From: a virus
Taxonomy: Duplodnaviria; Heunggongvirae; Uroviricota; Caudoviricetes
Virus record (IMG/VR): IMGVR_UViG_3300000439_000006
Reading direction: 5' to 3' (one strand)
Length of the DNA stretch: 64,000 nucleotides
The notes below the pieces were generated by a model that worked only from the letters and a program-made list of their open reading frames with translations, was not told the origin of the DNA and made no database searches. A program made the translations under genes and the position numbers. Each line of letters opens with the position of its first letter. Positions within the stretch are counted from its first letter, which is position 1. Shown piece after piece: positions 2,642 to 63,356 of the stretch.

Positions 2642-2660
2642 GTGTATATATTTAGTTGAT

Positions 2661-2702
2661 TTGTTAAAGGACATATCTAATTTGTTAAAAGACATATCTA
2701 AT
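2661..2702. repeat. Tandem 21-bp direct repeat TTGTTAAA(G/A)GACATATCTAAT x2
   Basis: Two adjacent copies with one mismatch; the core TTAAAGGACA also occurs at 2253 and 2974. Confidence 0.85.
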
Positions 2703-2723
2703 ATAAACAGAACATATCTAAGC

Positions 2724-2755
2724 TTATAAAGGAGTTCGCTGAAAGCGAGTGGAAT
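2724..2755 (-). promoter_or_regulatory. Conserved hairpin element, copy 2
   Basis: TTATAAAGGAGT-TCGCT-GAA-AGCG-AGTGGAAT; same flanks and spacing as copy 1 but a different stem sequence. Confidence 0.5.
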
Positions 2756-2770
2756 GTTCGTATAAACAAA

Positions 2771-2798: not shown

Positions 2799-3181
2799 GT
2801 GGTGCCGACTAAGGCTGTTGTGGTATTACATCTCAAAGTTATAAGAGAAAACCTTTTGTAAATGGGTAAGCGGCATTATAACCCTCCCCCTGACATTTCT
2901 ATATGTAGTTGTATTGATCCGTAATGTTGAATCAACCTACAGAGATTATCTTGTATGATTTTCTCCTAAATTATTAAAGGACAAAAACTCTCAGCTCAGA
3001 AACATGCGAAACTTCCAAAACCTTCCCAAAGACTAAAGGAGTTTTGTTTCAAAAGACTTTCCCTGAACTTGATAGGGGGTCAGGGTCGCGAGTTCCGAGC
3101 CGGGGCTTCTGACTTGGGGGGTCTTAACATCCTCTATTACAAGATCTTTTTTTAGGGGGTAAAAAAATTTTTGTATATTGT

Positions 3182-3287
3182 AAGTGGTGGCCGCCTTTAT
3201 TAGAGAGTAAGCTGTATTGAAAAGGGTGGTGTAGAACAGTGCATCATCAACCTGTATGTAAGTTTAGCCCCTGGTAAAGAACCACTT
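3182..3287 (+). ncRNA. Candidate structured small RNA (about 105 nt)
   Basis: Closing helix AAGTGGT/ACCACTT and internal helix GCCGCCTTT/AAAGGGTGGT; GTATATTGTAA motif upstream, terminator downstream, no credible ORF. Confidence 0.5.
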
Positions 3288-3330
3288 GTCTTCTTAGAGG
3301 TCTCACTTCCTTTGAGAAGGCATTTTTTTT
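3288..3330 (+). terminator. Intrinsic terminator
   Basis: GTCTTCTTAGAGG-TCTCACTT-CCTTTGAGAAGGC followed by ATTTTTTTT. Confidence 0.7.
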
Positions 3331-3347
3331 AGAAAAATAAAAAAAGA

Positions 3348-3379
3348 TTTGGTGGAGAAAAGATATACCCTTATCTTTG
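3348..3379 (+). promoter_or_regulatory. Bacteroidota primary-sigma promoter for the tRNA operon
   Basis: TTTG (3348-51), 20-nt spacer, TATCTTTG (3372-79); matches the -33/-7 consensus TTTG-N19-21-TAnnTTTG. Confidence 0.8.
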
Positions 3380-3386
3380 TAATGTA

Positions 3387-3449
3387 ATGAAAAAGAATAC
3401 ACAACATACACAACAGTTTCCGACAACGCCTTGTTTTACAAGACGATGA
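3387..3449 (+). CDS. Attenuator leader peptide MKKNTQHTQQFPTTPCFTRR (20 aa)
   Basis: ATG at 3387, TGA at 3447-49; codons 5-18 encode only Thr, Gln, His, Phe, Pro and Cys, the six downstream tRNAs. Confidence 0.8.
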   Translation: MKKNTQHTQQFPTTPCFTRR

Positions 3450-3491
3450 TGAACTAGTGTATATATGTGTGAAAGATATGTCCCTGGTTCA
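3450..3491 (+). promoter_or_regulatory. Antiterminator hairpin (2:3) of the attenuator
   Basis: TGAACTAG (3450-57) pairs with CTGGTTCA (3484-91) and GTATAT (3459-64) with ATATGT (3476-81); this sequesters the terminator 5' arm. Confidence 0.7.
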
Positions 3492-3511
3492 GAAATGAGC
3501 CGGGGATTTTT
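3481..3511 (+). terminator. Attenuator terminator hairpin (3:4)
   Basis: TCCCTGGTTCA-GAAA-TGAGCCGGGGA then TTTTT, ending 5 nt before tRNA-Pro. Confidence 0.85.
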
Positions 3512-3516
3512 AATTT

Positions 3517-3588
3517 AGGGTGGTTGACCAATGGTAGGTCCCTTGCTTTGGGAGCAAGTGCGTGCAGGTTCGAGTCCTGTCCACCCTA
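3517..3588 (+). tRNA. tRNA-Pro (TGG)
   Basis: Acceptor AGGGTGG/CCACCCT, anticodon arm CTTGC-TTTGGGA-GCAAG, T-loop TTCGAGT; CCA not encoded. Confidence 0.9.
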
Positions 3589-3597
3589 CAAATATAA

Positions 3598-3669
3598 GAG
3601 AGGTTGACCGAGTGGTTTAGGTGATGGTCTGCAAAACCATCTACGTTTGTTCGATTCAAACACTTCTCT
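3598..3669 (+). tRNA. tRNA-Cys (GCA)
   Basis: Acceptor GAGAGGT/ACTTCTC, anticodon arm ATGGT-CTGCAAA-ACCAT, U73 discriminator. Confidence 0.9.
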
Positions 3670-3673
3670 CTAT

Positions 3674-3747
3674 GGTGAATAAGCTAACTTGGTAGAAGCA
3701 CTGGTCTGAAAAACCAGAGGAGTTAGGTTCGATTCCAACATTCACCA
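3674..3747 (+). tRNA. tRNA-Phe (GAA)
   Basis: Acceptor GGTGAAT/ATTCACC, anticodon arm CTGGT-CTGAAAA-ACCAG; irregular T-stem. Confidence 0.85.
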
Positions 3748-3755
3748 CAACACAC

Positions 3756-3827
3756 GCCTCCTAAGCATATACGGTGATGTGCCTCTCTTGTAAAGAGGAA
3801 AACCGGGTTCGAGTACCGGAGGAGGCT
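3756..3827 (+). tRNA. tRNA-Thr (TGT)
   Basis: Acceptor GCCTCCT/AGGAGGC, anticodon arm CCTCT-CTTGTAA-AGAGG; G53-A61 mismatch. Confidence 0.88.
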
Positions 3828-3834
3828 CTTATAT

Positions 3835-3906
3835 TCTTCCATGGTATAATGGTTAGTACAGGAGTTTTTGGAGCTCTTAGTCTTTGTTCGATTCAAAGTG
3901 GAAGAA
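3835..3906 (+). tRNA. tRNA-Gln (TTG)
   Basis: Acceptor TCTTCCA/TGGAAGA, anticodon arm GGAGT-TTTTGGA-GCTCT, T-arm CTTTG-TTCGATT-CAAAG. Confidence 0.85.
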
Positions 3907-3908
3907 CT

Positions 3909-3980
3909 GTGGCTATAGCTCAACGGGAAGAGTGTTAGCTTGTGGCGCTAAAGGTGCCGGTTCGGTTCCGGCTAGTCACC
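3909..3980 (+). tRNA. tRNA-His (GTG)
   Basis: Acceptor GTGGCTA/TAGTCAC, anticodon arm TTAGC-TTGTGGC-GCTAA, C73; position -1 is T rather than G. Confidence 0.88.
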
Positions 3981-3986
3981 CTATTT

Positions 3987-4025
3987 GTCAAGTATTCTGT
4001 ATAGGATACTTGACTTTTTATTTTT
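3987..4025 (+). terminator. Terminator closing the tRNA operon
   Basis: GTCAAGTATTCT-GTAT-AGGATACTTGAC then TTTTTATTTTT. Confidence 0.85.
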
Positions 4026-4101
4026 ATCCACACCCATGTGGAAACAATCTTTCTAAAGATAACTTTAATATATATAAATTTGCTAAGTTTAAACTTTTTA
4101 A

Positions 4102-4112
4102 GTATATTATAG
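4102..4112 (+). promoter_or_regulatory. GTATATT(A/G)TA motif, candidate late promoter
   Basis: Seven intergenic copies: 3173, 4102, 14473, 23277, 31004, 38335, 45830. Confidence 0.55.
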
Positions 4113-4113
4113 T

Positions 4114-4335
4114 ATGAATACATCAACAGGTATGGAAGGTAAACTAAGTCACTACCGCCAGACAACCAACAGAAATGGGGATCCTATAAATGTCCCAGTA
4201 ATCGATGTCCGTGATGGAATCGGTGAGCGTCTTTTAGCTGAAAGCATTATAAGACGATCGAGTGTAAGTCAGTTTATATCTTATAACCAATATCACACAT
4301 CTCATAAAAAGAATGCTAATGATACATCGCTGTAA
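4114..4335 (+). CDS. Hypothetical protein (73 aa)
   Basis: ORF immediately after the promoter motif. Confidence 0.5.
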   Translation: MNTSTGMEGKLSHYRQTTNRNGDPINVPVIDVRDGIGERLLAESIIRRSSVSQFISYNQYHTSHKKNANDTSL

Positions 4336-6110: not shown

Positions 6111-6385
6111 GAACATTCTATGATAATAGAACAGGTAAAATAGGTAGTACAAATAAACCTTTATATGGATGGGTATTATTTCAAAGTAAAAAAAACAAAA
6201 GATGGCTTCTTTGGATAGCAGGTATGGGTTTAGTTGTTACTCCAAGAACAATCTTTCCTTTTTATTTTTACTATCCAAAAAATATTTTTGATGGCATTTG
6301 TTATTTATATGATTGGTATTACAATCGTCAACATAAGAAGTGGTATAAACGTATACATAGACACACATTAAAATTACCTATATGA
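6107..6385 (+). CDS. Hypothetical aromatic/hydrophobic protein
   Basis: ATGA coupling at both ends. Confidence 0.6.
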   Translation: MRTFYDNRTGKIGSTNKPLYGWVLFQSKKNKRWLLWIAGMGLVVTPRTIFPFYFYYPKNIFDGICYLYDWYYNRQHKKWYKRIHRHTLKLPI

Positions 6386-7218
6386 GTATATTAAGATTTA
6401 CAGCAGATGACCACAAGTACACAACAATCGACAACCCAGAAGAAGAATGGTTATCAGTAACCAGTTTGATCAGTCAGTTTAAACAAGGATTTGACGCGGA
6501 GAAGATGTCGCAGAAGTCATCTAAGAACAAAAAGAGTAAGTGGTATGGTATGACACCAGAAGATATTAGAGCAGCTTGGAAAGCTGAAGCTAATAGAGCC
6601 ACCACTCTTGGTACATGGTATCATAATGAACGTGAGAAAGATCTTTGTTCTTTCACCACTATAGAAAGACAAGATGTAACTGTTCCTATTTATAAACCGA
6701 TCGAACTAATGGGAATCAAGTATTCTCCTGATCAAAAGATTAGTGATGGTGTATATCCAGAACATTTAGTCTATCTTAGATCTGCAGGTATATGTGGACA
6801 GAGTGACCTTGTGGAAGTTGTAAAAGGTGATGTTCACATCACTGATTATAAAACAAACAAAGAGATTAAGACAGAAGGATTTACAAGCTGGGATGGTAAA
6901 ACACAAAAGATGGAAAGTCCTCTATCTCATCTGGATGATTGTAACTATATACATTATGCTTTACAGCTTTCTATGTATATGTATATGATTCTTAAACACA
7001 ATCCAAAGCTTAAGCCGGGAGTGATGACTCTTCACCACATTATATTTGAAGAAGCTGGTAGAGATGAATATGACAACCCAATCACAGCTTTAGATAGTAA
7101 TGGTGATCCTATAGTGAAGGATGTTATTCCTTATGAGGTTCCTTATTTGAAAGCTGAAGCTATAAAGATCATTCACTGGTTGGAAGATAATAAACACAAA
7201 CTTAAACCTAAACACTAA
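6382..7218 (+). CDS. PD-(D/E)xK family nuclease (RecB/lambda-exonuclease-like)
   Basis: SVT..I, GT..H, E, GQSDL, ITDYKT, HYALQLSMY motifs. Confidence 0.85.
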   Translation: MSILRFTADDHKYTTIDNPEEEWLSVTSLISQFKQGFDAEKMSQKSSKNKKSKWYGMTPEDIRAAWKAEANRATTLGTWYHNEREKDLCSFTTIERQDVTVPIYKPIELMGIKYSPDQKISDGVYPEHLVYLRSAGICGQSDLVEVVKGDVHITDYKTNKEIKTEGFTSWDGKTQKMESPLSHLDDCNYIHYALQLSMYMYMILKHNPKLKPGVMTLHHIIFEEAGRDEYDNPITALDSNGDPIVKDVIPYEVPYLKAEAIKIIHWLEDNKHKLKPKH

Positions 7219-8342: not shown

Positions 8343-8537
8343 ATGACAGAGTTATACGATTGGTTATTCCACAAAGGACTTGACGGTAATTGGGCCGCCA
8401 TCCCTAGAGATAAAGTGGAATCTTACTTTAACAACTACAGTTGTCCGGATATTATAAGATCTTCACAACTTTCTACAGTGATAGAACTTGCTGAAAAAGT
8501 AACTCTAGATAAAGAGTTTCTAAAAACTATTAGCTAA
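8343..8537 (+). CDS. Hypothetical protein (MTELYDWLFH...)
   Basis: In-frame ATG after the previous stop; TAATG coupling to TerL. Confidence 0.65.
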   Translation: MTELYDWLFHKGLDGNWAAIPRDKVESYFNNYSCPDIIRSSQLSTVIELAEKVTLDKEFLKTIS

Positions 8538-10735
8538 TGCCCTTTATAGAAATCCCCACATATGATTGTGGAGCTTGGCTCACCACTACCTTTGATACAA
8601 AAGAAGAGTTCCGAGACTTCCTTATTCCCTTATTTAAAACCCCTGGAGAGTATAACTTAAACAATGTCACCTCAGCTATATTTAACGCTGAGGGTCGTAG
8701 GTTTGAAAAACAAGGGTTTTATTGTTCAGCTCCATTAAAAACAAAAGACTTTATAAAATACTGGGACGACCAAAAAGCTAAGTGTCGTAATGGGTTGATT
8801 GTAAAGGATGAGTTTAATACGTGGTATATTCCAAGAGAATATTACATGTGGCTTAACTTCCTACCTATATATGACAAAGAAGAAAAACGATTTGCTTTTG
8901 CAAAGATCAGGGATGCTCAGTACCATCTGGCGCTTTATGAACTCTTGGCTGAGCTTCATGATAAACACGCCATCATTCTAAAGAAACGTCAGATAGCCAG
9001 TTCTTATTATCACATGGCTAAGTTTATTAATCAGTGGTACTTTGAACAAGGAGCTGTGTTAAAACTTGGCGCCAGTCTTAAAGACTACATCAATGAGAAA
9101 GGATCTTGGAAGTTTCTAAACGAATATAAGAACTTCTTAAACGAACACACAGCTTGGTATCGTCCAGCTGAGCCTGATAAAGTGGGTGCTTGGCAACAAC
9201 AAATCAAGGTGAGAATAAATGGTAGAGATACTTACAAAGGACTTAAGAGTACAATCAACTCTTATTCATTTGAAAAAGATCCTACAAATGGTGTCGGTGG
9301 ACCGGTAACATATTTCTTTCACGAGGAAGCTGGTATCGCTCCTAAGATGAATGATACATATGGATTCATGAGACCAGCTCTTAAATCAGGTCATCTTATC
9401 ACTGGTCAGTTTATAGCTGCAGGATCTGTCGGTGACCTTGATCAGTGTGGTCCATTGAAAGAATACATCCTTAATCCAGACGCTAATGGCTTCTATGGAA
9501 TAGAAACAGATCTTATAGATAAAGATCACACAATAGGAATCACAGGGTTATTTATTCCCGAACAATGGAGTATGCCTCCATATATAGATCCACACGGTAA
9601 CTCTCTTGTTAAAGAAGCTTTAGATGCTTTACAGGAGGAGTTTGATAAAGCTAAAAAGAATCTTGAGCCAGCTGCCTATCAGTTAATGGTATCTCAGCAT
9701 CCTCGTTCTATAGAAGAAGCTTTTGCTACAAGAAAGCTTTCTATATTTCCTCCACACTTAATAGCCAAACAGTTACAACGTATTGCTGAGAAAGAATATT
9801 CTGTTGAGTATCTAGATCTTTCCAGAAATGCTGATGGTAAAATAATAGATAAACCATCTAGAAAGATTCCCATCACTGAGTGGCCGATCACTAAAAACAC
9901 TGTAGACAAAGAAGGAGTTATATGTGTATATGAACGTCCTGTTAAAGATGCTGTATTTGGCATGTATTATGCTTCAGTCGATCCTGTTGCTGAGGGTAAA
10001 ACAACAACATCAGATTCTTTATGTTCTATATACATATACAAGAGTCCTACACAAGTGATTAAAGATGATGGGTCGGGAAAGATTGAAAGCTCTATGGAAC
10101 GTGACGGAATCGTAGCTTCCTGGTGTGGACGGTTTGATGATCTTACAAAAACACATGAACGTCTAGAGATGCTTATAGAATGGTATAACGCCTGGACTGT
10201 GGTGGAAAACAACGTAGCTTTGTTCATCCAGTATATGATTTCTAAAAAGAAACAAAAATATTTAGTACCTAAGAACATGATTTTGTTCCTAAAAGATATA
10301 GGAGCCAATGCTAACGTGTTTCAAGAATATGGCTGGAAGAACGTGGGTACACTGTTTAAAGGAACCATCTTATCTTATGCCATAGAATACCTTAAAGAAG
10401 AACTTGATCAGGAAACTCTGGCCGATGGGACCATTGTCAAAACAATCTATGGAGTGGAACGTATCCCTGATCCTATGCTTCTAAAGGAAATGCAGGGATA
10501 CCAGGATGGGGTGAACGTGGATAGACTAGTGTCTTTTGCTGCGCTAATAGCTTTTGCTAAAGTCCAACAGTCTAACCGTGGTATAACAAAAAGGGTTGAA
10601 ACCACCAAAACTAATTTGGAGGTCTCTAAAAATTTCAGTAGATTTAATATGAGTCCTTTTAGACATATTGGTGGTAGCCAAACGAGTGGTGGTATGGCAG
10701 CTCCTAGAAGAAACGCTTTTAAAAATATTCGATAA
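8537..10735 (+). CDS. terL: Terminase large subunit
   Basis: LKKRQIASSY (Walker A variant), FFHEEAG (Walker B), VDP..EG nuclease motif, NVDRLVS; crAss-type. Confidence 0.92.
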   Translation: MPFIEIPTYDCGAWLTTTFDTKEEFRDFLIPLFKTPGEYNLNNVTSAIFNAEGRRFEKQGFYCSAPLKTKDFIKYWDDQKAKCRNGLIVKDEFNTWYIPREYYMWLNFLPIYDKEEKRFAFAKIRDAQYHLALYELLAELHDKHAIILKKRQIASSYYHMAKFINQWYFEQGAVLKLGASLKDYINEKGSWKFLNEYKNFLNEHTAWYRPAEPDKVGAWQQQIKVRINGRDTYKGLKSTINSYSFEKDPTNGVGGPVTYFFHEEAGIAPKMNDTYGFMRPALKSGHLITGQFIAAGSVGDLDQCGPLKEYILNPDANGFYGIETDLIDKDHTIGITGLFIPEQWSMPPYIDPHGNSLVKEALDALQEEFDKAKKNLEPAAYQLMVSQHPRSIEEAFATRKLSIFPPHLIAKQLQRIAEKEYSVEYLDLSRNADGKIIDKPSRKIPITEWPITKNTVDKEGVICVYERPVKDAVFGMYYASVDPVAEGKTTTSDSLCSIYIYKSPTQVIKDDGSGKIESSMERDGIVASWCGRFDDLTKTHERLEMLIEWYNAWTVVENNVALFIQYMISKKKQKYLVPKNMILFLKDIGANANVFQEYGWKNVGTLFKGTILSYAIEYLKEELDQETLADGTIVKTIYGVERIPDPMLLKEMQGYQDGVNVDRLVSFAALIAFAKVQQSNRGITKRVETTKTNLEVSKNFSRFNMSPFRHIGGSQTSGGMAAPRRNAFKNIR

Positions 10736-30479: not shown

Positions 30480-30512
30480 TTTGGAGATATAAGTAGACTT
30501 TACATATCTTTG
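30480..30512 (+). promoter_or_regulatory. Bacteroidota primary-sigma promoter
   Basis: TTTG (30480-83), 21-nt spacer, TATCTTTG (30505-12). Confidence 0.75.
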
Positions 30513-54740: not shown

Positions 54741-57700
54741 ATGCCAGATAACATAATACCTTCAGCTCCTTCTACAAGTGGTCCTACAGCTGAACAGAAG
54801 ACTAATGACATGAATACCTTTATTGGTACAGGTCAAATGGCTGATGCAGCTTCAAGATATCCTACAGACACACCTGTTAGTCTTGTTAATGGACAAACAA
54901 TAAACGATCTTTTGAACCAGGCTCAAACAATACAAGCCCAAACAAGAGGTCTTTCTACATTACATCAGTTTGGTGAAACAAGTAATAAAGAGTTTGATGA
55001 AGACGCAGCTTTTGCTAATATAAACAAAAAGATAGCTACAGATCCCACTATAAAAATGAATGTTCAAAAGAACTCAACAAGTGTAGGAGCTGGAGATGAT
55101 CTTGAAAGATATAAACAATCTAAACATTTTAACACTTTAGGATATACTCCAGGTCTTGGAGAAAAACAAGAGTTTAAATATGGTGATGTAATGACATGGG
55201 GAGAAACCATGGGTAAAGCTGTTGGTGGAGCTTACGAATTAGGAAAGGCTACATTCATAGAAGGTTTCAAAGGATGGGGTAGAATGGTTGAGTCTTTAGC
55301 CACTTTAGATCTTTCTAAACTTATGGGTTCTGAACAAGAACGCTATGACATGGCTAAAGAACAACAAGAGATATTTGATAAGTATGCTATATATGATACC
55401 AAAGAATCTAAAGAAGGAAGTCTTTGGAATAGACAGTTCTTTGGAAGTATGTTACAACAATCAGGATTTGCTCTTGGTGCCGGTTTACAAATGGCCGTTG
55501 AAGGTTGGCTAACAGGTGGTATTGGTGATCTTTTAGAAATAGGTCTTGCTTCTAGTCTTGTAGCTAAAACAGGAAAGACAGCAGCTGAAGTAAGAGAGCT
55601 TGCTGGAGTGGCTGAAAGAACATCAGCTATTGGAAAAGGAATAGAAAGAGTTAAAAATGTTTTTAGTAAACCTACAGGAACTATAGGTGAAGCTCTTAAC
55701 GATGCTAGAAAGACAGCAGATGTAATGACTAAAGAAAAAGGCGTAGCGGAAAGTCTTGCCAAGTTTACAAAAAGCTTAATTCCTTTTTATGAAACAGGTG
55801 AAGAAATAGCTAAGCTTAATAAAGCTGGAGCCGGTACTCTACAACTTGTTGGTGCTGGATTAGGTGGTATTAAACGTAGTCTTAGTGAGTTTAACATGGC
55901 TCGTTCTGAGTCTATATATGAAGCTGCTAGTACATATAAACAACTTCAAGATAAACTTGTAAAAGAATATACAGAAAAAAATGGTGAAGCTCCTTATGGA
56001 GAAAAGCTTGAAAAGATACGTCAATCAGCTGAGAATGCTTCTCATGATAACTTCTGGACTAACGTAGGTGTACTATCACTTATGAATAAGATAGAGTTTG
56101 ATAACATGTTCAAAAGCTTTAATGGTACTCGTCAAATATTTAGTGAAGGAGCTCACGCTTTAGAAGAACATGCATTTGATGTAGCTGGAAAGGTTGAAGG
56201 TAAGATGGTTAGAAAGGCTTACACAATCAATCCATACTTTGGTAAACTAGGAGCTTTAGGTGATATTAGTAAAACCTTTGGTGGAAAAAAAGCTGCCTGG
56301 GAAGCTACTAAAATCGTTGGAGGTAAGTTCTTAAAAATAGAAGGATCTGAAGGTGTTCAGGAACTTTTACAGAATGCATCTGACCAAGGATTAGAAGACT
56401 ACTACTATGACTTATACCATGGTCAAAAAGGATATGGTGAAACAAGACTTGGTAAAGTGATGGATGGCTTCACTGATCAACTACATACAATTGAAGGAGC
56501 TAAGACATTTATAATGGGAGCTTTAACCGGGGCCCTACTTTCTCCTCTATACAAAGGAATAAGAATTAGTACAGAAGCTCTTAATGATAGAAAACAACTT
56601 AAAGCTGATCCTAAGTATCAAACTGCTAGACAACAAGCTATAGAAAGTGTAGGTCTTGTTAACGCGTTTTACTCTGGAGACAAAACCGCTCATATGAAAG
56701 AGTGGATAGCTAACGTTAAAATACAAAACAAAGCTGCAGAAACAATGGAAGATGCAGCTAGAAACCACGATAAGTATACATTCTATAACGCTAAAGATAC
56801 AGCGTTTAACAAAATGATTGGTGCAGCCATCAAACTAAACATGTTTGAGTCTGTACGTGATTCTATAAAAGAACTTGGAGACACTCTTAAAACAGATGAA
56901 GAGTTTAAACAAGCGTTTGACATGGAGCCTACAAAGGAAAACCGTGGAAACGCTAAAACTTTTATGCATAAGATCGCTAACGATCTTGAAGAATACCATG
57001 AGACACATACTAGACTAATGGATAAGTATGCTGATATTGTTATTCCTAAGCTGTTTAAAAACAACACATTACAAGAACAAGCTGATGCTAAGTTAGCTTA
57101 TGAAGCTGTACATCAGGCCATAGGTATGTTAACATTCAACGTACAAAAAGCTAAGCAAACTGTTCTACGTAATGTTTCTTTAAAACAAGAGATGTCTTCC
57201 AATCCTCATATAGGAAGTTCAGCCGGTATGATATTAACAAAAGCCGGTGGACAAACTAACGTGGAAGATAGTATAAAGATGTTAAACCAAGAAATCAAAC
57301 AAATGACTTCTGGTGGACCATTAACAGATGAACAACGTACACTTGTTTCTCAAAAAGTTGAAGAGGTGGGTCATCTTAAAAAATGGGCTGATGTACATCA
57401 TGATGTAGAACTAGGTGAATATGATGAGTATTCTCCAGAACACTTACAGAGTGATGCATATAAGACGTTTATGGATCTTATCAACTTTTATAACAAACAG
57501 AACAAGATATCAACTAATGTATCTAAACAAGATGCAGAGAGTGTGTTCATTAGTATGTTAGACTTTATGAAGCTTAACAGAGATAACAGGGGTTATGTTG
57601 ACGCTGTTAATCTGTTATCTGATCCTAACAATATGGATCTTATTATGAGAGCTACAGCGTCAGCTATCGTAGCTACAAATAAGGTGATGACTAAAGAACA

Positions 57701-60700
57701 TCTTGAAACAATCAACAAACTTATTGAAGCCGGGGAAGAAAAGAAAGAAGGAGAAGAAACACCAACATCTCCTACAGCTACAACATACACAATAAAAGAA
57801 GAGGCTGATGGATCATTCACCGTTGTTGATTCTGAAGGAAAAGAGATAACTAAAAATCTTGCGACTAAAGATGACGCTCAGGAACTTATAGATAGTTTAA
57901 ACAAACAAGCTACAAAAACAATAGATAAATCTTCAAGCCCTGCTTTAGAAGAAATCAGAAAAAGAAAACAAGCTTTAGAATATTCAGCCAATCAATTAAC
58001 ACAACAGTTTCAAGAAAAAGTTGATGACCTGGTATCAAAAGGGGCCACTCAAGAAGAAGCTAAAAACATTGTCCTATCTGAAATGTCTAGTGAGGATAGA
58101 GAAGCTTTAAAGAAACTGTACAATAATTTGATATCTGTTCTTGGTGAAGAAAAAACAGAGTTAACTAATATAAGTAATATTTTGGTTAACGAAAGAGGTA
58201 ATAATAAAGATGTAGCTAAAGCTATAGTTGATTCTAATAACAAAGTCATAACACTAGAAGATCTTGATAAGATACAGAAAAACTGGAATGATAACAATGG
58301 TTTGACTGATGTTATTAAAGCTATTGATGATGTAAGTAAAGATATAAAAGAAAAAGAAAACATTCTTAAAGACTTCACCACTCCTCAGCAATACCTGGAC
58401 GAAGACTCTAATGAGTTTAAATCGTTATATAACGATGGGTTGGATACATTATCAAAAGTGATAAACAAACCTAATGTTAAAGCTGACGAAATCAAAACAG
58501 CTTTTGATCACTTCTTTGACAATGTGGTTATTAAACTAGATCCTAGTCTGGCCGCCAGAAACATGTATAAGAAAAAGCATAAAGAAGAGATGGAAGCTTT
58601 GATTCAAAAAGCCAATCTTAATGCTAAAGCTAATGACGTATCTGGAGCTAAACAATCAGTTACAAATGTTTACAGTAAAGAAGGTTCTTTAAATGAGTCA
58701 GCTGAGGATGTGTTTAACATTTTAAACAATGGATTAAACCCAGAACATAAAGCTGAGGTGGTGGAACACTTTGAACAAAGCTATTTAAAAAACATAGCTC
58801 GTAAAATAAGTAACCTTATAGATAGAGCTAATGGTATATTAAGTGATGGAATACATTCTTTCTTAAAAAAAGAAGGAGAGAAAAGAGTTTTACGAGCTGA
58901 GAAAGAACTAAACAACTATAAAGAAGAAGCTACAAAGCTTAAAGAAAGTATAGATGGTGCTGGTATAAAGTTGAACGTAGAACATAATGAAGACTATAGT
59001 ACAAGTATAAATCGTAGTATTCAATATAATGATAGGTTCGCTAATAAACCTGCCACACTTGGTCAATCAGTAGCTATTGATAATCTGTTACGTACCGGTA
59101 TATTAACAGAAGAAGATCTACAAGGTAATAACAGAGACATGATGGTTGATGCTAGCAGCATCATTAATATAGGTAGCGCTAGAATAGCCACTATAGAGTT
59201 GAACAAACTAGCTAACGAATATATAAAAGAAAAATCAGCGACCAACTTAAAAAACTTAAAAGCATCTGCTAAACAATACCTTACAAGTATATATGGTAAT
59301 AGTAAAGAAGCATTGGAAATAATCAATGATCTTGTAGATGGTAATGGTGAGAAAGATGAAGATGGTAATCTGATATCAGAAGGTTTAGCTGACTTTGATG
59401 ATGTGGATACATTGCTTGGTGAGAATGTATTAAACGTTCCAAAAGTAAAAAAACTTCTTACAAATGAACAATATGCTTTATTAGCTACGTTTAAGAAAAA
59501 CCTTTTCCAGTCACAAATATACGGTAACATACTAAACGTATTTAACACTATATCGGATAAGGAGTCAGAGGCTATATCAAATAATCAGATTAATGCTGAA
59601 GACTTTATCACTGTAGGAATTCTTAATAGTATACCAGATTCATTGTTTCAAAAAGATAGTGAAAACAAATCTGTTAAAAACAGTGCTGCTTTAAGAGATG
59701 ATATATTATCTTTAATCAACACTTTAGATACATCTAGTAAAGATGAAAAAGAAGTCAATAAGTTGATAGAAAGTGTATCAACTAAATACTTTAGTTCTGG
59801 AAGTAAGCTTAATGGTATGGGTATGATTCAAGCATATGTTGGAGCTTACTTGAGCGTTAAAACCAGACTATCAACAACTAGTGTTACGGATAATGATGGA
59901 GCCCGTCTTTCTGAAGAAGAGATGTTACATGCTTTAAACAATAGTAAAACAACTTCTTTAAGTAAATCACAGATAGCTAGTGTAGATGAGTTTGCTAAAA
60001 CAACTCTTCTTGACGCATACAAAGAAAAACTTAACGCAGCTATAGGTTATACTCCTCAAGATCTTAACTATTCTCCAGAGAAACTTAGTGTTCCTGAGAA
60101 CCCAACAGGAACGTTTTCTTCTTTAAGAGAAAAAGACCCGGCCGATATCAGAACAGCTGATGACCTTATAAAAGCTATGAATGCTGTAGACAACAAAGTG
60201 GATACGAAAACAGCGTTACAGTTTGTTATGAACAGTGAGTTTGCTACAGACGCTGAAAAAGAACTAGCTTCTAACTTACTGGTGGCTGTACAACCTGGTA
60301 CAACCATGGCATTAGCTAACAACTCCAACTTTGACAAACCATCTGCAGGTGACTTCGATCCTAATACAAATGAGATAAGGATTAATATGGATGCTGTCGG
60401 ACACAAGGAAGGATATAAATCTGTTCCTTTAGAAACAGTTATTTTACATGAGCTTATACACCAACTTACAGAAAGCGCTTTAGAAGATCCTAACAGTGAG
60501 TTTGCTAAAGGAATCAAATCTTTGATCAACGCTGTAAAGAACGTTGAAGGTGTTGATACGTTTTATGCTTTCCAGAAGAGTTTATCTTCTGATGAACAAC
60601 TACGAGAGTTTGTGGCCGAAGCTTTAACTAATCCTTCTTTCCAATACTTATTGGCTAAAACTCCTTACGCTAACAGTAAAATGAGTGTGTGGGATAAGTT

Positions 60701-63356
60701 GATGGACATCATAAACAAAGTGTTATCAGCTGTAGGAGTTATATCTGGAAACGACTCAGCTTTATCTGAAGTGTTATCTCTTACAGGAGATCTTTTAAAC
60801 CCAGCTAATCCGAGTCACTTTGGATTTGTTACTGAGACTATGCAAAAGGTAAACAAAGCTAAGTCTTTAGAAGAACTAAATCAGATCAAAGAAGATTTGT
60901 TTAACAATAGAGAAAAGGTAAATGATGATCTTTATAATTCTCTTAAAAACTCCATAGATGGAAAAGAAAAGAGTATAAGACAACAACAGATAAAAGAGGA
61001 ACTTAAAGGATATGATGTCATCAAGATAAACAAAGTTACCTATCACTATCAACTTAAAGACACTGGATTAACAGTGTTTAAAGTGACAAGGAATGCTACT
61101 AAGACCAAAATAAAAGATCCTGCGATAGCCGGGTCTATTATAGAAAAGCTTCTATCAGAAAAAGGAGTGAGAAAACTACTTTCTAAAAGAGCTATCAACG
61201 ACATCATGCGTGAAGCAGGTGATCCTATGGATAGAGGATCTTATGCTAGTGGTGAAATGGATAAGAATGGTGCACCTATATATGAAACAAGATATCCTGA
61301 AGAATCTGAAGTACATATCAACCTTCCTTTTGAGCCAGGGATGTTTGCAAAGTTTACACGCGAGTTCTGGGCATTTAAAAAGTCAGGAAAGCTTGATCTT
61401 AAACTTGATTATCTAAAGAAAGAATACGGAGTCACAGCTGTAGCAAATTATGGTGAGTTAGCTAGTAAACTAGATAGAGACCAGATAAACAATCTTGTTA
61501 GAAGAAAATGGATATCTACTGAAAAGAAGATGGGAGGATTTTCTCTGGAAGATCATTTGAACGAAGGAATATCTGAAGACAGACTTTTCCAGATGTATCA
61601 TGATGTGTTAGCTGGTATCAACATAGATGACACAGACTATAAAGCCATTAGAAAAACTATCAATAGTGTACTAAAAACAGAACTTGGTGTCGACATATCT
61701 GACGAGTTACAAACTAAGATTGAAAACAAACTGTTCTATGAGGATATTCAAGTTGAAGAAGACGCTCCTATAAATGAACCAGTAGAACCAGGAGAAGAAC
61801 CTAAAGTGGTTTACACGAAAGAAAAAGAAAGTGACAACATAGCTGATTACAAGATAAACGAAGATACAACAGCTAAACAAGATAGTGCATTACGTTCTTA
61901 TAATCCAGATAACTTTGGCGTAGATGAAAAAACAGGTGAGTTAAAACTTACTAATCAGTTTAAGAAGTTCTACTACAAGGTGAGAAATGTTATAAACGCC
62001 TTATCTGTAAAAGACATAACAAGTCTTAAGGGCTATCATGTCACCATGGATAAAGATGACGCCAACTTACGTTGGGATGGATCTGCTGAAGATGATGGTT
62101 ATAAAAACGCTGAAAAAGGTGTTCTCGGATATATATCTGATGATAAGGGAAATCCTTTAGTATTTGATTCTAAAGGTAATATGGTTGGAACTTTGGATAA
62201 AAATAACCTATCAGATCATAAAGGTCTTAACAATGGAGAAAACCAGATTGTGTATTTCACTTTGATGAAGAATAATAATGAATACACTAATCTTGATAGC
62301 TTTAAAGACGCAGCTGATTTAAAAGCCGCTAGAGAAAAGGTAATGAACGGAAATCCACAGATAGGAAGATTGATTAATGTTAGTCAAGGTCAGATGAATC
62401 TACAGGGTGGATTAACACAAAAGAACTCTCAACGTAAAAGAAGTAACGATAATGATTTCTCAGAACAGTTAAATCAAGATCATGTAAGTATAACTCTTAG
62501 TCCTAATGGTAGATCACTTGTGATTGATATCACTGGTCCAGATGGAGCTGTAAATAGAGAAGGACTTTACCCACCAAACATAAATACTCTTCATGTTAAT
62601 ACAGGAGAACGTAACACATCCATGTTTGATTACATCATAGAACTGATGCAAACATATAGAAACATGGCTGAGAGTAAAGATCCAAACTTGTTAAATGTAC
62701 AACAAAACCTAAAAGACTTCTTAGGACATATCCTTTATAAGGGAAATGTTCGTATTGGTGGTGAATTCTACAACATAGAAGTGAATACTGGTAAGAAAGA
62801 TGCTAACGGTAAATATATTACAGAAGGTTTCCCTGTATTTAAAAAAGATGCTAATGGTAACTGGGTTATTAATGATGAAAACTTTAAAGATAATGATCCT
62901 AAAAAGAACGTCTTTAATATGCTTAGAAACTATATCAATCGTCAACCATTGAATATAGATCAAGAGTGGCTTAGTGGTAAACGTGCGTTCATGTTCCCTA
63001 TAATAAAAGAGGAAAATGGTAAAAAAATCGTTACCTTTGTAGAGAAAGATTACAGAGATTTCTTATTAAACGAAGTGGGGTTTGCTACTAATATTAGAAC
63101 AATTCCTGCTCAAAAAGATATAGAGCGTAATAACTCTATGGTTCACTTTGAATCTCCTAAAGATCTTTCACCTAAGACAACACCTATAGAAACAACCAAC
63201 AAAAACTTAGTTGACAATCCTAGTGTTATAAAAGAAACCGTAAAAGAAGATATAAAAAATGCGAACACAACAGGTGTAACAGGAGTGAAGAATACATCAA
63301 AGAAGAAGTTCAGAGCTCCAGTACAAGATGAGGTGTTCGATAAAACTTGTAAATAA
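54741..63356 (+). CDS. Giant virion protein (2871 aa) with zincin-like protease domain
   Basis: VILHELIHQLT (HExxH, near 60447) then EQLREFVAEALTNPSFQ; Gly/Ala-rich putative membrane segments in the N-terminal part. Confidence 0.75.
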   Translation: MPDNIIPSAPSTSGPTAEQKTNDMNTFIGTGQMADAASRYPTDTPVSLVNGQTINDLLNQAQTIQAQTRGLSTLHQFGETSNKEFDEDAAFANINKKIATDPTIKMNVQKNSTSVGAGDDLERYKQSKHFNTLGYTPGLGEKQEFKYGDVMTWGETMGKAVGGAYELGKATFIEGFKGWGRMVESLATLDLSKLMGSEQERYDMAKEQQEIFDKYAIYDTKESKEGSLWNRQFFGSMLQQSGFALGAGLQMAVEGWLTGGIGDLLEIGLASSLVAKTGKTAAEVRELAGVAERTSAIGKGIERVKNVFSKPTGTIGEALNDARKTADVMTKEKGVAESLAKFTKSLIPFYETGEEIAKLNKAGAGTLQLVGAGLGGIKRSLSEFNMARSESIYEAASTYKQLQDKLVKEYTEKNGEAPYGEKLEKIRQSAENASHDNFWTNVGVLSLMNKIEFDNMFKSFNGTRQIFSEGAHALEEHAFDVAGKVEGKMVRKAYTINPYFGKLGALGDISKTFGGKKAAWEATKIVGGKFLKIEGSEGVQELLQNASDQGLEDYYYDLYHGQKGYGETRLGKVMDGFTDQLHTIEGAKTFIMGALTGALLSPLYKGIRISTEALNDRKQLKADPKYQTARQQAIESVGLVNAFYSGDKTAHMKEWIANVKIQNKAAETMEDAARNHDKYTFYNAKDTAFNKMIGAAIKLNMFESVRDSIKELGDTLKTDEEFKQAFDMEPTKENRGNAKTFMHKIANDLEEYHETHTRLMDKYADIVIPKLFKNNTLQEQADAKLAYEAVHQAIGMLTFNVQKAKQTVLRNVSLKQEMSSNPHIGSSAGMILTKAGGQTNVEDSIKMLNQEIKQMTSGGPLTDEQRTLVSQKVEEVGHLKKWADVHHDVELGEYDEYSPEHLQSDAYKTFMDLINFYNKQNKISTNVSKQDAESVFISMLDFMKLNRDNRGYVDAVNLLSDPNNMDLIMRATASAIVATNKVMTKEHLETINKLIEAGEEKKEGEETPTSPTATTYTIKEEADGSFTVVDSEGKEITKNLATKDDAQELIDSLNKQATKTIDKSSSPALEEIRKRKQALEYSANQLTQQFQEKVDDLVSKGATQEEAKNIVLSEMSSEDREALKKLYNNLISVLGEEKTELTNISNILVNERGNNKDVAKAIVDSNNKVITLEDLDKIQKNWNDNNGLTDVIKAIDDVSKDIKEKENILKDFTTPQQYLDEDSNEFKSLYNDGLDTLSKVINKPNVKADEIKTAFDHFFDNVVIKLDPSLAARNMYKKKHKEEMEALIQKANLNAKANDVSGAKQSVTNVYSKEGSLNESAEDVFNILNNGLNPEHKAEVVEHFEQSYLKNIARKISNLIDRANGILSDGIHSFLKKEGEKRVLRAEKELNNYKEEATKLKESIDGAGIKLNVEHNEDYSTSINRSIQYNDRFANKPATLGQSVAIDNLLRTGILTEEDLQGNNRDMMVDASSIINIGSARIATIELNKLANEYIKEKSATNLKNLKASAKQYLTSIYGNSKEALEIINDLVDGNGEKDEDGNLISEGLADFDDVDTLLGENVLNVPKVKKLLTNEQYALLATFKKNLFQSQIYGNILNVFNTISDKESEAISNNQINAEDFITVGILNSIPDSLFQKDSENKSVKNSAALRDDILSLINTLDTSSKDEKEVNKLIESVSTKYFSSGSKLNGMGMIQAYVGAYLSVKTRLSTTSVTDNDGARLSEEEMLHALNNSKTTSLSKSQIASVDEFAKTTLLDAYKEKLNAAIGYTPQDLNYSPEKLSVPENPTGTFSSLREKDPADIRTADDLIKAMNAVDNKVDTKTALQFVMNSEFATDAEKELASNLLVAVQPGTTMALANNSNFDKPSAGDFDPNTNEIRINMDAVGHKEGYKSVPLETVILHELIHQLTESALEDPNSEFAKGIKSLINAVKNVEGVDTFYAFQKSLSSDEQLREFVAEALTNPSFQYLLAKTPYANSKMSVWDKLMDIINKVLSAVGVISGNDSALSEVLSLTGDLLNPANPSHFGFVTETMQKVNKAKSLEELNQIKEDLFNNREKVNDDLYNSLKNSIDGKEKSIRQQQIKEELKGYDVIKINKVTYHYQLKDTGLTVFKVTRNATKTKIKDPAIAGSIIEKLLSEKGVRKLLSKRAINDIMREAGDPMDRGSYASGEMDKNGAPIYETRYPEESEVHINLPFEPGMFAKFTREFWAFKKSGKLDLKLDYLKKEYGVTAVANYGELASKLDRDQINNLVRRKWISTEKKMGGFSLEDHLNEGISEDRLFQMYHDVLAGINIDDTDYKAIRKTINSVLKTELGVDISDELQTKIENKLFYEDIQVEEDAPINEPVEPGEEPKVVYTKEKESDNIADYKINEDTTAKQDSALRSYNPDNFGVDEKTGELKLTNQFKKFYYKVRNVINALSVKDITSLKGYHVTMDKDDANLRWDGSAEDDGYKNAEKGVLGYISDDKGNPLVFDSKGNMVGTLDKNNLSDHKGLNNGENQIVYFTLMKNNNEYTNLDSFKDAADLKAAREKVMNGNPQIGRLINVSQGQMNLQGGLTQKNSQRKRSNDNDFSEQLNQDHVSITLSPNGRSLVIDITGPDGAVNREGLYPPNINTLHVNTGERNTSMFDYIIELMQTYRNMAESKDPNLLNVQQNLKDFLGHILYKGNVRIGGEFYNIEVNTGKKDANGKYITEGFPVFKKDANGNWVINDENFKDNDPKKNVFNMLRNYINRQPLNIDQEWLSGKRAFMFPIIKEENGKKIVTFVEKDYRDFLLNEVGFATNIRTIPAQKDIERNNSMVHFESPKDLSPKTTPIETTNKNLVDNPSVIKETVKEDIKNANTTGVTGVKNTSKKKFRAPVQDEVFDKTCK

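Follow-up and report, generated by a model that had tools for sequence, protein, structure and literature searches.

Several enterobacterial operons are controlled by leader-peptide attenuators that sense charged tRNA, among them ilvGMEDA (Ile/Leu/Val), thr (Thr/Ile), trpL, hisL and pheL. Attenuators of this type have been the subject of modelling (PMC1183508), and leader-peptide attenuation has also been inferred for amino-acid operons of Flavobacterium (PMC9723704). Aminoacyl-tRNA synthetase genes are controlled by the pheST attenuator (with its pheM leader) and by T-box riboswitches. On the phage side, T4, T5 and many other large phages carry tRNA arrays, and for some of their tRNAs a role as substitutes for host tRNAs cleaved by anticodon nucleases has been proposed; to our knowledge, no demand-sensing leader is known for the arrays of T4, T5 or other large phages. 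Why phages carry tRNA genes at all, and how these genes are controlled, is a long-standing question. In the literature that we searched we found no description of leader-peptide attenuation controlling tRNA genes. We believe that the cassette analyzed here, from a crAss-like phage, is likely to be such a case, i.e., a ribosome-mediated leader-peptide transcription attenuator regulating six tRNA genes and providing for their demand-driven synthesis, for which there is no experimental or transcript evidence.

The features of the cassette are listed in Table 1, with coordinates that refer to the window, that is, the whole 64-kb stretch of DNA that was analyzed.

Table 1. Coordinates of the tRNA cassette and its component parts within the window.
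Feature	Coordinates	Strand	Remarks
Terminator-like hairpin with T-run, 5' of the cassette	3287..3322	+	14-pair stem, then TTTTTTTT
Sigma-A type promoter, Bacteroidota	3348..3379	+	-33 TTTG 3348-3351, 20-nt spacer, -7 TAtcTTTG 3372-3379
Leader ORF, near-leaderless	3387..3449	+	20 codons and TGA; first ORF past the promoter
Sensing run	3399..3440	+	14 consecutive codons, solely Thr, Gln, His, Phe, Pro, Cys
Segment 1, 5' arm of the 1:2 hairpin	3398..3419	+	Within the sensing codons
Segment 2	3450..3471	+	Immediately 3' of the stop codon; pairs with segment 1 or, via 3450-3457, with segment 3 (antiterminator)
Intrinsic terminator	3480..3516	+	Segments 3 (3480-3491) and 4 (3496-3507), U-tract 3508-3516
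tRNA array	3517..3981	+	Exactly six tRNAs by ARAGORN, all six confirmed by Rfam
tRNA-Pro(tgg)	3517-3589	+	
tRNA-Cys(gca)	3598-3670	+	
tRNA-Phe(gaa)	3674-3748	+	
tRNA-Thr(tgt)	3756-3828	+	
tRNA-Gln(ttg)	3835-3907	+	
tRNA-His(gtg)	3909-3981	+	
Closing terminator of the cassette	3987..4014	+	

This anatomy is shown. The four elements that a preliminary description, made from the sequence alone, had named (promoter, leader, pairings and array) were all present where it had placed them, between 3348 and 4014. What it called a host-type promoter corresponds to the Bacteroidota sigma-A consensus; the claim of a 20-codon leader with a 14-codon run matching an array of Pro, Cys, Phe, Thr, Gln and His was upheld, and the 1:2, 2:3 and 3:4 pairings that it proposed were reproduced by folding. 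Its 11-bp GAAA-capped terminator held only in part, the loop being right and the stem having 12 bp, and the U-tract, said to end 5 nt short of tRNA-Pro, actually abuts this gene.

The consensus TTTG-20 nt-TAtcTTTG has just 4 occurrences in the window, and the promoter block is alignable with the promoters of the modules found in relatives. Another + strand consensus promoter, at 30480-30512, sits before an ordinary gene and has no leader. As the sigma-A -7 box spans positions -12 to -5 in Flavobacterium psychrophilum (PMC9723704), transcription is predicted to start near 3384, leaving the leader with a 5' UTR of ca. 3 nt. With so little RNA ahead of the start codon, the efficiency of such near-leaderless initiation in the unknown host is untested. 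The sole consensus promoter before the array is upstream of the terminator, and therefore its transcripts must read through to express the array. Terminator-like hairpins are found on both flanks of the cassette, and we infer that the one on the 5' side would insulate it against transcription from upstream.

The leader extends from an ATG at 3387 to a TGA at 3447-3449, and the peptide stretch encoded by its codons 5-18 (3399-3440) is T Q H T Q Q F P T T P C F T. All six amino acids of the array appear in this run, each decodable by an array anticodon, and the array can decode 14 out of the 14 core codons (13 under strict wobble, CCT needing expanded U34 wobble). His and Cys have one codon each in the leader, for which reason the sensitivity to tRNA-His and tRNA-Cys is possibly low. 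Considering all six frames of the window, this is the longest run made of the six-amino-acid set, the runner-up having 9 codons. The composition-corrected expectation is ca. 1.7e-4 such runs per window, and none of 200 Markov-simulated windows contained a run >11, which excludes a chance origin of the run within the window. One could still propose that an ORF arisen by chance happens to adjoin a leaky terminator or an insulator of the ordinary kind, and that expression of the array is constitutive, coming either from elsewhere or from read-through. Short ORFs abound in AT-rich intergenic DNA, and the flanking terminator-like hairpins would fit. However, the low expectation just given argues against this explanation, which we regard as very unlikely and as effectively refuted by the comparative data presented below.

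The alternative helices are shown in silico. The predicted fold consists of a hairpin (3398-3471) plus the terminator stem (3480-3507), with z = -5.4 against shuffles. The minimum-free-energy pairs of 1:2 are 3398-3403/3466-3471, 3406-3411/3457-3462 and 3415-3419/3451-3455. The 12-bp stem of the terminator includes two G-U pairs, has its GAAA loop at 3492-3495 and reaches -19.9 kcal/mol, the 2:3 helix with its inner stem being weaker (-13.8 kcal/mol). When a ribosome mask was applied to the full-length leader, the terminator was never displaced from the equilibrium fold, and therefore the model works only kinetically, like the trp attenuator. The equilibrium mask test says nothing on a kinetic switch, and we used instead the folding of a transcript truncated before segment 4, with a ribosome placed on the leader. 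In this truncated transcript the 2:3 antiterminator had P = 0.89 in silico with the ribosome on codons 1-17, falling to 0.3-0.5 with the ribosome on codons 18 to the stop. The attenuator criteria of an ORF between promoter and genes, cognate codons and an intrinsic terminator are met in the window; that of a mutually exclusive, ribosome-dependent antiterminator is met in silico only. In all of the nine related units a strong terminator with U-tract was found, starting 21-37 nt past the stop codon, and each has an upstream partner for the terminator 5' arm. We claim no covariation support for the helices because the homologues are too few.

There is an alternative that we consider unlikely, namely a translation-coupled switch with some other logic and no specific tRNA sensing. 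It could be a general translation gauge, in which read-through needs any ribosome, or have reversed polarity, stalling favouring termination. In its favour, segment 2 lies inside the ORF in several of the longer leaders of relatives, and the simple trp-like geometry is therefore not valid for all units. Besides, the computed segment 3 pairing in these relatives is non-monotonic with ribosome position, and the equilibrium fold never loses the terminator. However, a general gauge would need no leaders tracking each array to the isoacceptor level, as described below, and against reversed polarity, the stop codon of the window unit directly precedes segment 2, which is the classical polarity.

Relatives, phages of ca. 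125 kb, were located via the neighbouring nuclease gene. The preliminary description had predicted that leader codons would change with array content in such phages, and this comparison, once run, was strongly positive. It is thus shown that leader and array co-vary across phages. At the corresponding site, L001/L002 carry an array of Leu(tag), Leu(taa), Ser(tga), Ser(gct), Tyr and Trp, and the leader run is YYLSLSWLSL. L062 has three modules, in which the run VNIGIMERRADEKVR precedes a 12-tRNA block (K V R R N M G E D M I A), LSSLSLYWL precedes L L S S Y W, and TTHTQFTQFTQPCP precedes P C F T H Q; jointly, the three arrays represent all 20 amino acids. In the L096 genome it is the Pro module that contains the tRNAs for Trp, Asn and Asp, and W, N and D codons are found in the leader of that module and are missing from the other two leaders. 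The same Pro module is devoid of a Cys tRNA and its leader run of C.

For a fixed-window test we took codons 5-18, picked without reference to the arrays. Out of 58 (module, amino acid) pairs of the arrays, 57 were also in the leader, and 85% of those leader codons belong to their own array; in 20,000 permutations of arrays among leaders, not a single one matched the observed values. As the modules under comparison share part of their ancestry, the P values overstate independence. The correspondence goes down to the isoacceptor, as in nine arrays not one isoacceptor lacks a decodable codon in the leader, and this holds for both classes of Leu, of Ser and of Arg, and for AUA/AUU/AUG. A comparison of 3280-4030 with the GenBank phage collection by distant blastn retrieved single tRNAs only and no close relative. 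No near-identical copies were found by exact pattern, using the terminator in viral contigs and the 5' half of tRNA-Pro in metagenome contigs. A degenerate pattern of the Pro-module leader yielded mostly chance repeats, the real matches being three already known contigs.

In the wider phage samples we used a log-likelihood ratio (LLR) to score how strongly an upstream ORF is enriched in the amino acids of its own array, a measure adopted because the no-mismatch run statistic missed arrays split by undetected tRNAs. Among 144 sub-arrays from IMG/VR, an LLR >=12 was reached in 12.5% (antisense 0%, permuted sets 0.4%), and among 63 from metagenomes in 15.9% (antisense 1.6%, permuted sets 0.8%). 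Most of the sampled arrays have no matched leader, and the signal is concentrated in arrays with Bacteroidota-type promoters. One of the leader-array matches was found in the cultured Cellulophaga phage phi38:1, and the idea is therefore testable at the bench; RNA-seq time courses of Cellulophaga baltica infected by this phage are public (PMC5335546). A chance ORF is contradicted by the fact that the concordance recurs for other amino-acid sets, not only in relatives but also in lineages of unrelated phages, and that it is (almost completely) absent in antisense and with permuted sets. The distance from the stop to the first tRNA, taking both samples together, was 57-76 nt in 14 of the 16 best-matching distinct units, the other two being phi38:1 (97 nt) and L027_b (160 nt).

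These data also bear on two other explanations, both of them very unlikely in our view. The first is a sensor at the RNA level, T-box- or sponge-like, in which leader triplets would bind tRNA anticodons directly without translation. The leader triplets do match the array anticodons. However, they are always contiguous, in frame and between ATG and stop, and the stop keeps the distance to the tRNAs just described. Moreover, a T-box requires a single specifier codon and not 9-17 of them, and a Rfam scan of 2800-4300 (E up to 5) found no T-box riboswitch (RF00230), tRNA being the only family found. The same scan gave no Trp, His, Leu or Thr leader family, placing the cassette outside those families. 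A PyrR binding site (RF00515) was rejected (25.3 bits against a gathering threshold of 54, E = 0.73). The second is that the small ORF encodes a functional micropeptide with no regulatory role, as might be suggested by its start and stop codons and by the conservation of a Lys-rich N-terminus (MKK or MKN). Against this, the sequence is replaced wholesale between modules, always tracking the tRNA content (no protein-family search was made).

The attenuation interpretation of the preliminary description is therefore supported, while leader translation, the direction of the switch (stalling leading to read-through) and the physiological trigger remain inferred, without expression data. According to this interpretation, the host sigma-A RNA polymerase would initiate near 3384, and a ribosome would load at the nearly 5'-terminal AUG and translate the 20-codon leader. 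With ample Thr, Gln, His, Phe, Pro and Cys aminoacyl-tRNAs, the ribosome would reach the UGA (3447-3449) and cover segment 2 (3450-3457), so that the 3:4 terminator would form and transcription would end in the U-tract ahead of tRNA-Pro. Scarcity of any one of the six would make the ribosome stall within 3399-3440, occupying segment 1, and the free segment 2 would pair with segment 3 while segment 4 is still to be transcribed, with read-through into the array. The new tRNAs, charged by host synthetases, would relieve the stall in a negative feedback loop. Without translation, 1:2 and 3:4 would both form, the default state being off. As for the trigger, anticodon nucleases or starvation had been suggested beforehand; this is inferred only, and the general decoding demand of infection is an alternative.

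A bolder reading is possible, although we lean slightly against it. Each tRNA module would be an independent closed-loop controller of decoding capacity, its leader a programmable multi-input sensor with at least one codon per isoacceptor, and the trigger an infection-induced loss of host tRNA (by turnover after host shut-off or by anticodon-nuclease defences). Bacteroidota phages would thus detect which tRNAs are disappearing and replace precisely these, and the modules, sensor included, would be exchanged and reshuffled between phages as units. Should host defences that cleave tRNAs prove to be the trigger, the element would tie translation-level sensing to phage counter-defence. More generally, the element suggests that the tRNAs are made on demand, under a sensor written in the codons that those very tRNAs read. 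The composition of the leader would reveal which tRNAs a phage handles as one regulatory unit, and the cassette, being small and portable, could serve as a sensor of decoding capacity.

Attenuation, known for amino-acid and synthetase genes, would in this way extend to tRNA genes. With the arrays of the T4 and T5 type the cassette shares the clustering of phage tRNA genes that supplement the host pool. With pheST and the T-box it has in common a feedback on the translation apparatus, the reading of the state of cognate tRNA and an output by termination or antitermination; however, those systems regulate synthetases and sense one tRNA each, and the T-box binds uncharged tRNA directly with no need for a ribosome. 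Like the enterobacterial attenuators, it has a promoter-proximal short ORF with regulatory codons, the alternative helices 1:2, 2:3 and 3:4 and an intrinsic terminator, and a single leader is devoted to several amino acids. In contrast to them, the phage cassette regulates tRNA genes and not biosynthetic enzymes, and the phage leaders cover 4 to 10 amino acids, whose codons mostly stand singly and dispersed instead of in tandem. Another difference is that the product of the phage element, which is phage-borne, modular and often near-leaderless, would feed back directly on its own sensor.

Ahead of the six tRNA genes of the cassette (Table), the only tRNAs in the 64-kb window, lies a leader ORF with T Q H T Q Q F P T T P C F T at codons 5-18. 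The preliminary description had proposed an attenuator whose leader peptide lists the tRNAs of its own array, and the array on which it relied (Pro, Cys, Phe, Thr, Gln and His) held exactly by both ARAGORN and Rfam. The promoter is one of four matches to the full sigma-A consensus, two of them on the + strand, and the second + strand copy is upstream of an ordinary gene; with only four matches, most genes may use other promoters. Since the -7 box of Flavobacterium psychrophilum occupies positions -12 to -5 (PMC9723704), the transcription start is predicted near 3384, which would leave a 5' UTR of ca. 3 nt on the leader mRNA.

Table. Coordinates of the cassette and of other features of the window
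Feature	Position	Strand	Detail
TAAAGGAG...GAGTGGAAT elements, two copies	2308-2345; 2727-2765		ca. 30 nt
ACATATCTAA motif, three copies	2655-2725		within ca. 60 nt
Well-folding non-coding stretch	3180-3322	+	-49.8 kcal/mol, z = -3.7
Terminator-like hairpin with T-run, upstream flank	3287-3322		
Promoter	TTTG 3348-3351, 20 nt, TAtcTTTG 3372-3379	+	Bacteroidota sigma-A consensus
Leader ORF	ATG 3387 to TGA 3447-3449	+	
Leader codons 5-18	3399-3440	+	
1:2 hairpin	3398-3419 with 3450-3471		
2:3 pairing	3450-3457 with 3484-3491		plus inner stem, -13.8 kcal/mol
Terminator	3480-3507		12 bp, GAAA loop, -19.9 kcal/mol
tRNA-Pro(tgg)	3517-3589	+	ARAGORN, Rfam
tRNA-Cys(gca)	3598-3670	+	ARAGORN, Rfam
tRNA-Phe(gaa)	3674-3748	+	ARAGORN, Rfam
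tRNA-Thr(tgt)	3756-3828	+	ARAGORN, Rfam
tRNA-Gln(ttg)	3835-3907	+	ARAGORN, Rfam
tRNA-His(gtg)	3909-3981	+	ARAGORN, Rfam
Terminator-like hairpin with T-run, downstream flank	3987-4014		
PD-(D/E)XK nuclease gene	6382-7218		2.4 kb downstream of cassette
Large terminase	8537-10735		
Giant ORF	54741-63356	+	2871 amino acids

The six amino acids of the array account for 16 codons, and the probability of a codon falling in this set is 0.21 (+ strand) or 0.25 (- strand) at the base composition of the window, for which ca. 1.7e-4 runs of at least 14 codons are expected per whole window (six frames). No run in the window exceeds the 14 codons of the leader (the runner-up has 9), and none of 200 first-order Markov simulations gave a run >11. 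Across long ORFs of the phage itself, 23% of residues are from this set. Besides, the run falls within the roughly 170 nt from promoter to array, on the same strand as the latter.

The leader RNA folds at -38.5 kcal/mol (z = -5.4 against shuffled versions), with a long hairpin between its arms 1 and 2 and, between arms 3 and 4, a terminator followed by a U-tract reaching tRNA-Pro. The two G-U pairs in the terminator stem make it specific to the + strand RNA, and segment 2 immediately adjoins the leader stop codon. In equilibrium folding the terminator was never displaced, at any ribosome position. The terminator of the classical trp attenuator also wins at equilibrium, the switch working kinetically. 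Because ours always wins at equilibrium, we folded instead a transcript truncated immediately ahead of segment 4. In it, segment 3 was paired with segment 2 (P = 0.89) for ribosome footprints anywhere on codons 1-17, and this 2:3 pairing dropped to 0.3-0.5 once the ribosome was on codon 18 or any later one up to the stop. The 1:2, 2:3 and 3:4 pairings of the preliminary description were thus all reproduced. As a caveat on the attenuation model, the antiterminator is predicted to be weaker than the terminator, and homologues of any single module were too few for a helix covariation test.

The neighbouring nuclease gene has 478 relatives in IMG/VR. The closest (loci L001 and L002, 84% amino-acid identity, genome of about 124.6 kb) carry at the corresponding site Leu(tag), Leu(taa), Ser(tga), Ser(gct), Tyr and Trp, preceded by a homologous promoter, an equally near-leaderless ORF with the core YYLSLSWLSL and then a terminator. 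Locus L062 has three tandem modules, each with its own promoter, leader and terminator, as does L031, and also L027 save for a first module cut by the contig end. In L062, the run VNIGIMERRADEKVR is found with Lys, Val, Arg, Arg, Asn, Met, Gly, Glu, Asp, Met, Ile and Ala; LSSLSLYWL with Leu, Leu, Ser, Ser, Tyr and Trp; and TTHTQFTQFTQPCP with Pro, Cys, Phe, Thr, His and Gln, the three jointly covering all 20 amino acids. When each leader region was scored against each array set (best ORF per comparison), the own set was the best in every row of this nuclease-linked family. It had been anticipated that relatives with different arrays would have different leader codons, and this check was positive.

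The 125-kb genome of L096, with 21 tRNAs, provides a case of relocation. Its Pro module contains Trp, Asn and Asp tRNAs and is missing Cys, and the corresponding leader, NNWHNTFNNFTPDQQD, has gained W, N and D in a run without C; the Leu/Ser/Tyr leader (YLLSYLSSLSY) has lost W, and the first-module leader (VIIAGRGAERIVK) N and D. The shifts of W, N, D and C are separate events, even though the modules share part of their ancestry. Taking only codons 5-18 of the first ORF past each promoter in ten modules, without consulting the arrays, 57 of 58 array amino acids were also in the leader, 85% of the codons belonged to the leader's own array, and 0 of 20,000 permutations of arrays among leaders matched the observed values. 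Because these modules are in part of common descent, the figures overstate independence.

The match extends to isoacceptors. For nine arrays, each tRNA could be matched to one or more decodable codons of its own leader run (6/6, 6/6, 6/6, 6/6, 12/12, 6/6, 6/6, 5/5 and 8/8), including both classes of Leu (CUN, UUR), Ser (UCN, AGY) and Arg (CGN, AGR), as well as AUA, AUU and AUG for the two CAU tRNAs and Ile(gat). Of the isoacceptors counted, three (Leu(tag) and Ser(tga) of L027, Ser(tga) of L062) were identified by eye and not by ARAGORN. In the window, 13/14 codons fit strict wobble and 14/14 expanded U34 wobble, and most sensing codons are those preferred by the phage. That His and Cys have a single codon each in this leader is a caveat on the model.

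Related genomes of ca. 125 kb differ in their tRNA matches (9 in that of L001, 21 in that of L096 and 1 in that of L023), and the closest complete one (L001) has the Leu/Ser/Tyr/Trp module alone at this site. From these numbers, modules are apparently gained or lost as whole cassettes with their sensors, possibly by recombination between near-identical promoters. At L001 5798-5893, L096 366-461 (-) and L021 2883-2978, ARAGORN also detected a 96-nt tRNA whose variable arm is long and whose anticodon is GTC (Asp). An Asp anticodon on a type-II tRNA body is unusual. In the L096 genome this tRNA is inside the Pro module, the leader run of which has three Asp codons.

Beyond this family, two array samples were drawn by tRNA sequence motifs only and scored by a log-likelihood ratio (LLR) that measures how far an upstream ORF is enriched in the amino acids of the array itself. 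Among 144 sub-arrays from IMG/VR, LLR >=12 was reached by 12.5% with the own set in sense, against 0% antisense and 0.4% with permuted sets; among 63 from metagenome contigs the values were 15.9, 1.6 and 0.8%. Most sampled arrays, including ones without Bacteroidota-type promoters, had no matched leader, which indicates that the method does not create the signal. Matches from unrelated lineages include the leader FDFAFFAAEAD upstream of Phe, Phe, Glu, Glu, Asp, Asp, Ala, Asp and Ala, and KHKHFSKSSFWFK upstream of a His/Phe/Trp/Lys array. The cultured Cellulophaga phage phi38:1 (NC_021796) has three matched leaders, e.g., RLLHQEPLEQLRLP upstream of Pro, Glu, Gln, His, Leu and Arg. The distance from stop codon to first tRNA is 57-76 nt in 14 of the 16 distinct units with the best matches (exceptions 97 and 160 nt). 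In the phi38:1 annotation (L099, NC_021796.1), the hypothetical protein gp066 (108 nt, +, locus 407-514) includes, in frame, the ORF of the first tRNA leader. At the second site (locus 1868-1999) the leader is unannotated and gp067 is called across it on the opposite strand. Both calls are probably annotation artefacts caused by the leaders.

The window is of phage origin, with genes for a large terminase, a portal protein and a major head protein. The terminase shares ca. 25-27% identity with its counterparts in crAss-like phages of Bacteroides, Flavobacterium and Cellulophaga. The giant ORF could be the virion-associated RNA polymerase of crAss-like phages, a suggestion resting on size and crAss-like context alone. 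Adjoining the cassette promoter upstream, the non-coding stretch that ends in the flanking terminator had no Rfam match and might be a small RNA gene. The ACATATCTAA repeats, perhaps operator-like, shortly precede an ATG (2639-2641) that falls within ORF 2381-2836, listed on the - strand. Both hairpin-containing elements starting with TAAAGGAG and ending with GAGTGGAAT have a terminator-like hairpin next; one is in the gap that follows the ORF ending at 2213 (- strand), adjoining the stop of ORF 2381-2836, and the other within that listed ORF.

The best explanation, likely in our view though inferred from sequence without expression evidence, is classical ribosome-mediated attenuation with tRNA genes as the output. 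With fast decoding the ribosome would get to the stop codon and mask segment 2, and the terminator would form. Slow reading of any sensing codon would hold it on segment 1, leaving segment 2 free to sequester segment 3, and the polymerase would enter the array, the tRNA products relieving the stall in a negative feedback. Without translation the default would be off. The host-type promoter and the intrinsic terminator fit transcription by the host RNA polymerase. The proposed sensor could not distinguish absent from uncharged tRNA, and general demand, host tRNA loss or anticodon nucleases are all possible natural triggers among which no data here discriminate. The model is kinetic and assumes near-leaderless initiation; the different geometry of the longer leaders of relatives is a further caveat.

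The Rfam search placed the element in no leader family, nor in the T-box or PyrR families. No description of tRNA genes, phage or bacterial, under the control of a leader peptide was found in the full-text literature searched, and the phi38:1 transcriptome paper makes no mention of such control. The element satisfies all structural criteria of the leader-peptide attenuator class that are open to in silico tests, and it would work like the pheST leader and the multivalent attenuators of ilv and thr. It differs from them in that its output is tRNA genes, that the phage leaders list 4-10 amino acids, mostly by single scattered codons, that the loop is self-referential, and that the element is modular and phage-borne.
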